A program made the translations under genes and the position numbers. The notes below the pieces were generated by a model. It was not told where the DNA came from. It did not search any database and saw nothing but the letters and a program-made list of their open reading frames with translations. From Lytechinus pictus (lineage: Eukaryota): a DNA stretch of 64,000 nt. Every line of letters begins with the position of its first letter. The stretch's first letter is position 1. Below are positions 14,869 to 22,959 of this stretch, piece by piece. The stretch lies in assembly GCF_037042905.1 (NCBI RefSeq), contig NC_087251.1, positions 3,288,001 through 3,352,000 on the forward strand, read 5' to 3'.

Positions 14869-15374
14869 TACTTTATGACTCTGGAATCAGCAATCACGAT
14901 ATGGCCGGGAAATCCATCTTTGTTTACATGTGTCTCTTTATGGGAGGCGGTTCAAAAAATCAAGGCTCTATGATCAAATGACAATATCATAATCATAAAA
15001 AAAATATGATCACGGAGTCAAGCCTTGAATAGGTGTTTTTGCGGCTAGGCCTATGCTATGCTAAGGAGAATAACTATACTAGTCTGTTTGAGTATGTATG
15101 GATATCTCTCTTTAGACTTAGTCTTAGATCTAGTCTAACTTAAGTTAAAATAATCTTTTTGATTTTGAAGCATGTAACTTTGGGAACAACTGCAGAATAC
15201 CCGGACACTGCGTTACCTTATCGTTGGAGAGCCAACGCACAACAATGTACTTAAGCTATCAAATCAGAAAATCAGCTATAATAAATAATTGAATGATTTA
15301 CAACTTACAAGTATTTTTTGAATAGATTCTAAGTGTTCAGACTGCACTGTAACGCTAACGATGCGAGCGCGCGC

Positions 15375-16985
15375 GATTAGTATGTAGACCAACAGTGTCC
15401 GCGATGCCAACGATGTGTATATTTTCGTAGTACGTGTAGGCCAACACAGTCCGCGATGCTAGCGGTGCGTTGGTGTCCGTAGTACAGGCCAACACTGCCC
15501 GCGATGCCAACGATCTATATATATATCTGTGTGCATCTGTAGTATGTAGGCCGACATTGCCCGCGATGCCAACGATGTGTATATTTTCGTAGTACGTGTA
15601 GGCCAACACAGTCCGCGATGGTAGCGGTGTGTTGGTGTCTGTAGTCGGTACAGGCCAACACTGCCCTCGATGCCAACGATCTATATCTGTGTTCTGTAGT
15701 ATGTAGACCAACAGTGTCCGCGATGCCAACGATGTGTATATTTCCGTAGTATGTGTAGACCAACATTGCCCGCGATGCCAACGATGTGTTGGTGTCTGTA
15801 GTACAGGCCAACATTGCCCTCGATGCCAACGATGCGATCATATCTGTAGTTGCCTATGTAAACCAACATTGCCCGCCATGGCAACGATGTGTTGGTGTCT
15901 GTAGTACATGCCAACAGTGCCCGCGATGCCAACGATGCGATCATATCTGTAGTTTCCTATGTAGACCAACATTGCCCGCGATGCCAACGATGTGTTGGTG
16001 TCTGTACTGTAGAGTACAGGCTAACATTGCCCTCGATGCCAACGATGTGAATGTATCTTTAGTAGGTATATATAGGCCAACAGCGCCCGCGATGCCAACG
16101 ATGTGTTGGTGCCTGTAGTAGATGCCAACAGTGCCAACGATGCCAACAATGTAAATGTATCTTTAGTACGTATAGGCCAACAGCGCCGGCCAGGATGCCA
16201 ACGATGTGTTGGTGTCTGTAGTATAGGCCAACCTTGCCCGCGATGCCAACGATGTGAATGTATCTTTTGTATGTATAGGCCAACAGCGCCCGCGATGCCA
16301 ACGATGTGTTGGTGCCTGTAGTAGATGCCAACAGTGCCAACGATGCCAACAATGTAAATGTATCTTTAGTACGTATAGGCCAACAGCGCCGGCCAGGATG
16401 CCAACGATGTGTTGGTGTCTGTAGTACAGGCCAACCTTGCCATCGATGCCAACGATGTGAATGTATCTTTAGTAAGTATAGGCCAACTTTGCCGGCGATG
16501 CCAACGATGTGAACGTATGTTTAGTATGTATATACCAACAGCGCCCGCGATGCCAACGATGTGTTGGTGCCTGTAGTAGATGCCAACAGTGCCAACGATG
16601 TGAATGTATCTTACATAGGCCAACATTGCCGGCGATGCCAACGATGTGAATATGCCTGTAGTAGAGGCCAACATTGCCGGCGATGCCAACGATGTGAATA
16701 TGCCTGTAGTAGAGGCCAACATTGCCGGCGATGCCAACGATGTGAATGTATCTTTAGTAAGTATAGGCCAACTTTGCCGGCGATGCCAACGATGTGAATG
16801 TATGTTTAGTATGTATATACCAACAGCGCCCGCGATGCCAACGATGTGTTGGTGCCTGTAGTAGATGCCAACAGTGCCAACGATGTGAATGTATCTTACA
16901 TAGGCCAACATTGCCGGCGATGCCAACGATGTGAATATGCCTGTTGTAGAGGCCAACATTGCCGGCGATGCCAACGATGTGAATA
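15375..16985. repeat. Complex minisatellite built on GCCAAC / GCGATGCCAACGATGTG motifs, with higher-order duplications
   Basis: Dozens of motif copies; near-identical 203-bp duplication (matching ORFs at 16103 and 16306); motif continues in both orientations at about 17365-17660. Confidence 0.95.
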
Positions 16986-17160
16986 TAACCCTAACCCTAA
17001 ACCCTAACCCTAACCCTAAACCCTAACCCTAACCCTAACCCTAACCCTAAACCCTAACCCTAACCCTAACCCTAACCCTAAACCCTAACCCTAACCCTAA
17101 CCCTAACCCTAACCCTAACCCTAAACCCTAACCCTAACCCTAACCCTAACCCTAACCCTA
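16986..17160 (-). repeat. Interstitial telomeric array: (TTAGGG)n on the minus strand, with TTTAGGG variants
   Basis: Counted 23 TAACCC and 5 TAAACCC units, 175 bp. Confidence 0.98.
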
Positions 17161-18273
17161 ATTGAATTCAATTCCCATTGAATTCAATTCCCATTGAATT
17201 CCTTCAATGGGAATTAAAACTTTATTTCATATTTTAATGAAGAAAAAATGAAAATATTTCATGTATAAAAAATACAAAAGAAATAGAGAGTGAATGACAT
17301 CGATCACCTCACTAACCAGGATATGCATATATTAAACTGTTTTGTGAAACCATACTTTGAAACGCTTGCCAACGATGTTTTGAATGTTGCATTGCACGGT
17401 CACATCGTTGGTCGTTGGCTAGCGGCGCACCCAACGATGTATAGCAATAGCTAGTAGTAGTAGGTAATTTAAAAGAGTGTATTAATCTTGTACTATTGCA
17501 CCTTCACATCGTGGGTCGTTGGTTAGCCAACGATGTTTTAAATGTTACATGGCACCGTCACATCGTTGGTCGTTGGCTAGCGATGTTTTGAATATTATAT
17601 TGCACCGTCCGTACCGTCACAACGTGGGTCGTTGGCTAGCAGCGCACCCAACGATGTTTAATTATACTTATAGCTCTAGTATAGTAGTAGTCAAAGGGCA
17701 AAGGTCATTACGTATGGCCTGGATGCATTGCTCGTACGTACCGTCATACGTACATACGTACGTAGTATAGTAGTAGTAGTAGTACCAGTAATGCATGTAC
17801 GTATATAATAGTATGGATATATCTAGGCTATATTAGGCAGGACAACAAGAATTTCAAAATGTGTTTGTTGTCGAGAGAATGATATCAAAATATTCCTTAA
17901 TATCTAATTTATCATGTGAAACCACTTAAAACTTACGTAAAATTCATTTAAACTGTAAAAAAAAGCAAATTCATAGCACCAACATGGTCCGAAAAAGCCA
18001 TAGACATCGCGGTACCTTTTTAATACACTGTACGTACTATCGATAGTTAAAACGATCACGATGTGCTCGCTAAATGCGCGCGCCCATCGGCGTCTGCTAG
18101 CCGTCATCTGCTGTGACTCTCCAATAGCCCCGCATGTGCAATTTTTTGTAAGATCGTCCCATATGCTGTTTTTCATGTTAGTACATACATGCGTGCACGT
18201 TATTTGCGGACGCAGATAATGTACGCATCTCCGTCGTCTGCTACGGCTCTCTTTATCAGTCCCAAGTGTACAT

Positions 18274-20560: not shown

Positions 20561-21114
20561 CTGAAGATAATATGATACTTCACGTAGTACAGGGGTATAT
20601 TGTCTCCCTTCCATTGTTGTGATGTATGGGCTGGGTAATATCATCTAACTTGTCCTGGAATAATCATTCTCTGCAACAAGTTCCACTTCAGCGACTCTCA
20701 GTTGAACATCATCATTCCTGGCATTGGCGGCGGAAGCCAAAAATTTTAGGGGGGAACCGCCAAAACTTTTTGACAAAAAAAAAAAAAATAGTGACAAAAA
20801 ATCTTAGGGGGGGGGGGACACAGGAAACAAAAGTGAAAATTGACAAGCAAAAAAAAAAAAAAAAAAAAAAAAGGTTATCAACAAAAAATTGAGGGGGGGG
20901 GTCGTCCCCTCCCCACCTAAAATTTAGGGGGATACGTCCCCCCCCCCACTTCCACCGCCTATGATTCCAGGTGCTTGGAGATCTTCGAAAGGCATGCTAT
21001 AACATCCACTTAAGTTCCAGTTCCTTTCATGTTTTTTCCTCATCTTAGTGAGCATCTCCAAGTGTTCATATTTTTAGTGTCCTTTTTTAGATTTACCAAA
21101 CTCAGTTTTATTAC
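20561..21114 (-). pseudogene. Decayed exon-like coding relic inside the 7.7-kb element, interrupted by a MITE
   Basis: After removing 20722-20963, frameshifted pieces read ...DDVQLRVAEVELVAENDY / QDKLDDITQP / YITTMEGRQYTPVLREVSYYLQ, bounded by tttatcag and CAG|gttggt; identity as a transposase is inference. Confidence 0.35.
20722..20963. mobile_element. hAT-like MITE
   Basis: CATTGGCGGCGGAAG ... CTTCCACCGCCTATG; 8-bp TSD ATTCCTGG/ATTCCAGG. Confidence 0.85.
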
Positions 21115-22744
21115 CTGATAAATGAAATTACAAAATTCTATCCCAAAAATTGAACACTTTGATCAAGTTTGGTTACTTAAACTTAATGTTAAATAAACTG
21201 AAAATATGTAATAAAAGGCAAAATAATGATAATGATGAAAAAAATACCGGTAATAAAAACAAAAGTTACTCAAATTCACTCAAAACCATACACTTATCTA
21301 CTCTCCTCAAAAATCAGTTCTCACTTTTAGGTATTGATCATTCATTCAGTCAATGAAATAATAAAAAGAGACAGGAGATCCTCATCAAAATAAACACAAA
21401 CACAGTGTCTCACACACACACTACACATTAATAGTAAAATCAGTTTGTATCTTTCGTGGGATTTGTTTTTATGTAAATCTGGATTCTTCTTGGTAGTAGG
21501 GCCTTAGGTCGCTCTGACTTGAACTTAAAACTTCCAATCTCAAGAAGGCAAGATATATCTCGGGAGATAGTCATCATCAAGATGTTTAGGAGTTCAACCT
21601 GGTGGTGAGGTTATTCATGATGGCATCTGGTATTCTGGCAGAAAGAATCAGAAATATCAAATGCATAAATACAATTGTTTATTTTTTTCAATACAAATTA
21701 AATTACCCGAGTCATTCAAGATAGTGGGTATTTTTTTTCTGGGGGGGGGGGGGTGATGGCATGACAAGTTTTTAGTCAAAAGTATTTTTATCTTCATTTA
21801 TCTTTTTTTTCCCACTTTGTATTACCATTTATTCAAAAATTGCAATAAACATATCAATAAATGAGTTTTTAATCTAGTTGGCAAAAGAAAAACCAGTGCA
21901 AAAGTAAAGCCAGTATTGGCAGTAAAACACTGACACCACGGCACTGACACTGACAGTGAATGTTCATTTTCCAGTGCATGCACATCACTGCCCCATCATC
22001 TTCACTCGTTTTCAGAAAATATTTAGTTATTTCTCAAATATGACCATGATTATCTTATTCATGTCATTACTCTGGTGTTTATTCATGATTTTAAATTCAG
22101 GAAATCATTCAGCAAACGAAGAAAACAAAGCATTTCTTGACTGTGATTCCGTGTGATTCAAGTTCAATTTCATTTCTGTGTGTATCACAGGTACGCACGT
22201 ACGTGACGTAATCTTAATCTCTATTATGATGTAAATTAATCATCCCGCGCGCGATTAAAATGGCTCGAAATTCGACCAAATTCAAGGGCAGCTCAGCTTG
22301 CAAACCTCACTGAGAAGGGCTTCCCCAGCCCTTGCGATTCCCCGCGCTGCAATTTCACTGCAATACACAGAAAGGAAATCAACTCAAGTTTCACAATCAA
22401 CGGAAAATCCGGAACCCTTCGAGACCCATTTTACAAGAAATACAACTAAATAAGGTAAGAATTGAAAGCAACTCAAGACATTTTCGACTTACCGACACTT
22501 TCATGTTTATTTTCGGAAGATTTCATGGAATTTGGGGCACGAAAATGACATCGGTAGCTCGCGAAAGTCCTGTGCAATATGATGACATATTTTTCATCGC
22601 ACGGGATCGGACAAGCACAAAGAGAAAATATCATGTTCATCCGCGATAACAGGGGCTTAATTTTGACGATATCGCATCGCTATGCGATTGCAATGATTGA
22701 CATGCGAACGAAGCTTGCGTACAAATTTTGAGCACTTCCGCGAC

Positions 22745-22759
22745 AGCGCCATCTAGTGA
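22745..22759 (-). promoter_or_regulatory. CTCF-like motif
   Basis: Reverse complement TCACTAGATGGCGCT versus consensus CCACYAGRKGGCRS. Confidence 0.45.
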
Positions 22760-22959
22760 CTACGGCCGTGCCTAGCTATATACCATTGAATTAGTATATA
22801 GCTATAGGTCTTGACATCGTTGTGTTGGCTGACCAACGATTGGGTAGTGAGCAGTGTCGGGGTATTCTGCAGTTAAGCCTAACTTTGTAAGTGGAAAGTT
22901 TTTTGGGGTAGGAGGGTGGGGGCTGTTGGATATTTTTTGACCTCATATTGTTAACCTCC

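Follow-up and report, generated by a model that had tools for sequence, protein, structure and literature searches.

Structure and Setting of the Element

The window analysed in this work is a 64-kb stretch of Lytechinus pictus DNA (NC_087251.1, positions 3,288,001 to 3,352,000; all coordinates given below are those of the window), and the study concerns a 7.7-kb element located at 15183–22879 which encloses a minisatellite and a short telomere-type array. An H3 coding exon, which we take to be H3.3 from its S31 signature, lies on the minus strand with its start at position 7846, and 7.3 kb separate it from the element, which is thus upstream of the H3.3 coding exons, as a preliminary description of this DNA had stated. 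A search of the DNA between H3.3 and the element (7900–15182) for other protein families found none.

The element starts with GG at both ends (GG...CC) and has imperfect inverted ends of about 66 bp, practically the ~65 bp given in the preliminary description. The left end (15183–15248, plus strand) is of the GGA type, with GGAAC followed by a 15-nt core and CCAACG motifs in its inner half, and would be the 5′ end of the element; the right end (22814–22879, minus strand) is of the GGCTT type. A core of 24 nt is 96% complementary between the left and right ends, and blastn aligned 15188–15248 with 22874–22814 over 63 nt (81%, E 8.7e-8). The element is flanked exactly by TAACTTTG at 15175–15182 (left copy) and 22880–22887 (right copy), in agreement with the exact 8-bp target duplication described previously; the probability that two random 8-mers from the 64-kb window match is about 4.5e-5.

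Inside the left end the minisatellite occupies 15355–16985 on the plus strand (~1.6 kb), with about 33 units of 39–62 bp, mostly ~48–56 bp, organised in higher-order repeats and built on CCAACGAT. This motif has 38 matches in the window versus 1.08 expected, 37 of which lie inside the element, including one in each end, and it continues on both sides of the telomere-type array. Judged from the sequence, the minisatellite looks native to the element, whose own end motif it shares.

The telomere-type array follows at 16986–17161 and consists, as read on the plus strand, of 23 TAACCC and five TAAACCC units and a final TAA. It is the sole TAACCC-type run of at least two units in the 64-kb window, and no GGGTTA run of at least two units was found anywhere on the plus strand; head-to-head arrays are thus absent from the window. 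The array lies in the interior of the element and on one side only, the nearer end being 1.8 kb away, and neither tip of the element carries telomeric repeats. The C-rich strand of the array follows the minisatellite on the plus strand, and its G-rich strand, the minus one, runs toward the minisatellite. This polarity is the reverse of that of a subtelomere, since it puts the minisatellite outside a would-be chromosome end, and therefore the block does not mimic a subtelomere, contrary to what had been noted from its satellite and telomere components.

The Element as a Member of a Dispersed Repeat Family

The region 17136–25500, which takes in the right part of the element, was compared with four of the 24 listed sequencing runs, the depth obtained not being a true copy number. 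In run X10 (DNA of organism C, another species) the summed/mean depth was 4,641–29,440 throughout the 19 bins of 17694–22994 and dropped to 12.3 and 20.3 in the two bins that follow. Single X10 contigs inside the element had depths of 1,790–3,100 versus 23.1 for a flank contig, very roughly an 80–130-fold excess, the flank being present in this run at single-copy depth. The contigs of the element in X9 (organism B) had depths of 3.4–8.6, with means of 0–0.36 in the four flank bins 22995–24110, and in X1 (organism A, library type unspecified) depths were 17.8–59.5 inside the element versus 4.6–10.5 in the flank contigs. Several differences from the window are common to X1 and X9, as expected of the family majority or of another allele. 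The depth step at the right end, pronounced in X10 and weaker in X1 and X9, shows that the element is a copy of a dispersed repeat family bounded by that end. Taken with the paired ends, the target duplication and the one-way array, the step also bears out the preliminary conclusion that the block lies within one transposon insertion and is no fusion scar.

Probable Assignment to the Merlin Superfamily

A 20-base end pattern was used to scan 12 of 64 metagenome parts and gave at least 120 loci (L001–L120; about 640 stored stretches estimated). Loci with more than 50% G+C and ends without the next bases of the family were dropped, leaving 104 family-type ends in 97 of the 120 loci. Among these, 52 were of the GGC type and 51 of the GGA type, and one was neither (103 ends were long enough to be classed). 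In all seven pairs in which both ends match the motif exactly, a GGA end is paired with a GGC end, as in the element described here; the mismatch at bases 3–5 is therefore a family trait and not decay. Compared with the GGAGC ends found in metagenome loci, the left end of the element has one difference in its first 11 bases; its first 20 are identical to those of L058. The loci L001–L120 themselves represent widespread animal families of miniature inverted-repeat transposable elements (MITEs), many of them ~120–500 bp long, with the unequal GGA../GGCTT.. end pair.

Within such ends 57 open reading frames (ORFs) were found, 32 of which were scanned against Pfam. Two loci, L006 and L027, gave matches to PF12762 (Merlin/IS1595) with E values of 2.7e-10 and 9.9e-14, respectively, and when a profile made from 120 relatives was run over the 120 loci (391,742 bases), again only L006 (profile positions 1–339) and L027 (3–339) matched, in pieces covering nearly the whole profile. 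The transposases of both loci are in sense toward a GGCTT end 0.8–0.9 kb away. By the Repbase rule, which assigns a gene-less element to a superfamily if its terminal bases 1–11 differ at no more than one position from those of a member (PMC4455052), the right end of the element qualifies, its first 20 bases being identical to these ends lying 3′ of the Merlin transposases. The stretch that separates the L006 transposase from its end matches the interior of two duplication-flanked MITEs, L036 and L061. Named relatives of the L006 transposase come from Acropora millepora (74%), the sea star Patiria miniata (57%) and Dendronephthya; the PMC8101967 supplement contains Merlin proteins of Strongylocentrotus and Apostichopus. 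The inverted ends of ~66 bp beginning with 5′-GG are within the 24–462-bp range of Merlin, and the 8-bp duplication agrees with the 8–9 bp of this superfamily.

From these likenesses the element is likely to belong to the Merlin superfamily, and the earlier guess in that direction has gained support from relatives that have this right end together with a transposase. Considered alone, that is, apart from any statement on the array, the Merlin-type insertion can be held with high confidence. No DDE_Tnp_IS1595 ORF or remnant was detected in the element by Pfam, the 120-protein profile or tblastn, so it is not an autonomous Merlin. The exact 24-base end pattern had no match in the metagenome contigs, and three patterns had none in viral contigs. 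Prokaryote genomes gave four matches, two of which look like animal DNA with a family end and two like chance, none with arrays. No literature on this end sequence was found in a partial library.

Tandem arrays are met with in some of the metagenome relatives. Loci L031, L061, L073 and L075 have subterminal arrays of another motif (8-bp GGCTACG-type, up to ~760 bp) directly inside such ends. Array growth near the ends appears from these loci to be a habit of the group; the 104 ends of the relatives are without TAACCC arrays in the inward sequence examined (up to 2 kb), and these ends therefore move without telomeric repeats.

Proposed Carriage and Origin of the Telomere-Type Array

Evidence on whether the array travels with the family comes from one contig of X9 (record 17, depth 8.63), 295 letters long, of which 259 are aligned from position 17170. 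Its length fits an entry into the array by at least 28 bases, as a contig assembled with k = 31, presumably the value used, would then measure 295–297 letters, and suggests that the array junction is common to the copies in X9.

Our preferred reading, to which a moderate degree of confidence is attached, is that the element is a non-autonomous Merlin copy whose telomere-type run is passive cargo, grown by slippage and likely riding in other copies. The element would be one intact-ended copy of a repeated family, moved by a transposase (IS1595/Merlin DDE) supplied in trans. The minisatellite would have arisen by amplification of a subterminal motif of the element, one that the transposase possibly binds. 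A short TAACCC seed in an ancestral copy, possibly added by telomerase, would have grown by slippage and been carried passively, with no telomere job. Growth by slippage is proposed because one and the same 7-bp variant, TAAACCC, recurs in five of the 28 units, as slippage duplication would give. Other copies in the window's own lineage may carry the array junction. A more far-reaching version sees a young Merlin family, with copy numbers in some sea urchins as high as about a hundred and with an array of ~175 bp in each full-length copy, seeding interstitial tracts genome-wide; Merlins, in this urchin and in Ptychodera, would repeatedly take up telomeric repeats as telomerase heals transposase breaks or as telomere proteins serve the element. 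This version is speculative and has a rather low probability.

A number of observations weigh against the preferred reading. As regards carriage of the array, the mapping skips simple repeats, so that the evidence of X9 record 17 is that of its length and not of its 36 unaligned letters, and X9 may be the source sample of the window. The depth comparison bears on the right-hand part of the element and not on its left boundary, its minisatellite or its array, X10 has no depth in the bin 17415–17693, and the loose ends listed include none at 22879 and point to no empty site. None of the 104 related ends in other animals has a TAACCC array in the inward sequence examined (up to 2 kb, with at least 1 kb for 37 of them); L022 has about two GGGTTA units 905 bases in, at a position not fixed relative to its element. 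As regards the superfamily, likeness between the element and the metagenome loci is confined to the first ~27 bases, with no interior match by blastn or tblastx, and neither 5′ ends nor target duplications were found for L006 and L027. Among 44 fuzzy end pairs, an exact 8-bp duplication was present in four, a 7-bp one in one, and one with two mismatches in eight in six, the other 33 having none (some of these rows represent one site). Finally, L021 contains a CACTA-type transposase (PF02992, 55–1782) 2.3 kb inside such an end, which is probably a separate element beside a short MITE. The preliminary proposal that the family spreads telomeric repeats, and possibly telomere-protein binding sites, was accordingly not demonstrated, since carriage by other copies depends on the length of one contig.

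Alternative Explanations

The element could be of Merlin type and the array a one-off, generated by telomerase repair of a break or by local slippage in this copy or a small sub-branch, in which case the family does not spread telomeric repeats and an ordinary non-autonomous transposon is left. We regard this as doubtful. The junction contig of X9 argues against it, its depth being at the top of the range of the element in that run and its length agreeing with an entry into the array, and recurrent 7-bp variants are not expected from fresh telomerase synthesis. On the other side, the junction was not seen directly in another copy, and the relatives in other animals (104 ends, up to 2 kb inward) are without TAACCC arrays. 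The array also sits exactly between two different repeats, like a recognised class of short interstitial telomeric sequences (PMC9693754), and documented mammalian cases include insertion at double-strand breaks (PMC2246262, PMC7215372).

A further reading is that the array is kept for a purpose, host telomere-binding proteins binding it and aiding transposition, end protection or escape from silencing, and that Merlins take up such repeats repeatedly. Short TAACCC runs do occur beside Merlin transposases in many Ptychodera flava records (S2 Appendix of PMC8101967), and certain short interstitial tracts are among the binding sites of shelterin in human cells (PMC6410037). The position of the array, far from the nearer end and on one side only, is unlike that of the repeats at TBE ends discussed below, and related elements with the same ends have moved without an array; a functional array is unlikely.

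That the element belongs to a different superfamily producing 8-bp duplications (MuDR-like, Zisupton, hAT or P) is very unlikely. The ends of hAT and P elements start with CA or TA, and those of CACTA elements with CAC, with duplications of 2–3 bp, whereas the right end of the element has the 20 bases found 3′ of two Merlin transposases and the MITE interiors match the Merlin 3′ region. The points that favour another superfamily are that the element has no transposase, that it contains spliced gene-like pieces, which are atypical of small Merlins, and that a CACTA transposase is present in L021. Zisupton, too, makes 8-bp duplications (PMC12730594).

An assembly artefact joining unrelated pieces at the junction of minisatellite and array is highly improbable. 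No read or contig was seen across the array or the minisatellite, both of which are hard to assemble; against this, the matching ends and the exact 8-bp duplication enclose both sides, CCAACGAT flanks the array, and such an error could change the unit count or the TAAACCC variants, hardly the frame. That the block is a chromosome fusion scar or a relocated subtelomere, as a telomeric array adjoining a satellite might suggest, is scarcely credible, and the preliminary dismissal of a fusion scar stands, because the array has one orientation only while fusion tracts are head-to-head (PMC6410037), its polarity puts the satellite outside the would-be end and transposon ends enclose the whole block.

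Gene-Like Pieces, Transcription and Other Features

Four exon-like pieces with compatible phases and one stop are located on the plus strand at 18911–19005, 19219–19303, 19367–19460 and 19716–19748 (together 18911–19748; the second piece was read by eye), and further exon-like pieces, with stops, on the minus strand at 20561–21634. No homologue of the gene-like pieces was found by Pfam, phmmer (1.84 billion proteins) or two word-index searches. Two Pfam rows for the element were below the cut-off, and no domain reached the threshold. In X10, roughly half of the depth over one exon-like piece shows a deletion of 4 bases. The coding relic of the preliminary description thus comes down to exon-like pieces with stops, which the Merlin profile did not match either; they may be a captured gene relic or chance.

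In the RNA run X23 the depth within the element peaks at 22158–22436, likely on the plus strand (26.9 versus 4.8 in depth by mate strand, all family copies pooled). The stretch 22158–22454 likely corresponds to a plus-strand transcript ending at a strong splice donor (22454) that points out of the right end; first exons that read outward may come from this family. The 15 splice joints listed include none inside the element. An open frame of 110 codons rich in P and Q (22791–23123, minus strand) reaches from the flank into the element through its right end and has neither a Pfam match nor RNA depth in X23.

Beyond the element, low RNA signal on opposite strands was found at 23274–23552 and 23553–23831, with splice donors near 23469 (minus), 23626 (plus) and 23738 (plus). 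A divergent promoter is likely around ~23550, perhaps for H3.3 on the minus strand and an EF-hand gene on the plus strand; because these opposite-strand signals suggest such a promoter, the element may sit within the first intron of H3.3. Two similar EF-hand exons, presumably MCFD2-like, are found on the plus strand at 43510–43941 and 45452–45754 and represent an apparently duplicated last exon or gene, the first of them being below the Pfam cut-off.

Several other parts of the element were delimited. A 16-bp partly palindromic repeat adjoins the array (17162–17218), and a degenerate fragment of a common unrelated dispersed repeat lies at 17203–17349 (plus strand), with copies at 4248–4397 and 28967–29139 (65–68% identity, E 4e-15 and 2e-13). 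High depth near 17266 was considered as a shared telomere module and rejected, its source being this fragment. A second CCAACG motif cluster, in both orientations, lies at 17369–17660, where X10 has no depth, and three diverged copies of a unit of ~190 bp are present at 18275–18889 (plus strand). Two G-rich MITE-like inserts with short inverted ends are nested at 19785–19981, which a family contig of X1 spans, and at 20720–20968, where the run mapping gave loose ends at 20722 and 20755; the second splits the minus-strand exon-like pieces. These inserts, like the minisatellite and the (TAACCC)n array, are enclosed by the ends of the element as had been described. The Rfam search gave nothing.

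A match to CCAACGAT at 24185 was examined as a third element end and rejected. Elsewhere in the window, and unrelated to the element, there are an inverted repeat element with arms of ~580 bp (8116–9843), a 156-bp tandem repeat (13028–13467) and a tandem array of 163–192-bp units (37316–38575).

Significance and Comparison with Known Systems

The abundance of interstitial telomeric tracts has been called a mystery (PMC9071541). Since one such tract lies within a bounded element that has many copies, carriage by mobile elements can be put to the test; an interstitial TTAGGG signal in these genomes, moreover, is not necessarily the mark of a fusion. The unequal pair of ends, conserved between this element and coral-type Merlins, can serve as a marker for classifying gene-less elements.

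Short interstitial telomeric sequences, as described in PMC6410037 and PMC9693754, resemble the present array in being short, of one orientation, slightly degenerate and placed between two repeats, and carriage by mobile elements and slippage are among the origins proposed there. The array differs from those tracts in lying inside one defined, target-duplication-flanked element of a multi-copy family, in which the carriage idea can be tested directly. The TU foldback elements of Strongylocentrotus purpuratus are reportedly sea urchin DNA transposons with tandem repeats near their ends and an 8-bp duplication, first found beside a histone sequence. They are said to have long mirror-image arms, in contrast to the ends of ~66 bp and the one-sided array reported here.

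The Oxytricha TBE elements (PMC4724952) are, like the present one, cut-and-paste DNA transposons carrying the host telomeric repeat, which is found in all TBE copies. They belong to Tc1/mariner, make ANT duplications and have about two repeat units at both tips, whereas the element described here is of Merlin type and has 28 units in an internal, one-sided array.

The Merlin superfamily (IS1595/IS1016-related), as described in PMC8101967, shares with the element the GG termini, imperfect inverted ends in the range quoted above, the 8-bp duplication and internal tandem repeats; the element differs in having no transposase, a minisatellite at one end only and a telomere-type array. The same source describes 10–14-kb fish Merlins with subterminal arrays, 79-bp arrays near both ends of Merlin-2_DR, and a 6-bp-period repeat of 39.5 copies, its unit not given, in Merlin-1_Aplcal from Aplysia. 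In its S2 Appendix file such motifs occur 29 and 10 times, a two-unit TAACCC motif being common to many of the Ptychodera flava excerpts that contain Merlin; among the places listed (6 of 29 and 6 of 10), all six of GGGTTAGGGTTA belong to a single homologous stretch of ~2 units, while ~10 units are present in one record. The string "telomer" has no occurrence in the main text of that paper, and a partial library gave no paper describing a telomeric array in a Merlin. Since Merlins with internal tandem repeats are already known, an internal telomere-type array in a likely non-autonomous Merlin is a modest twist on this superfamily.

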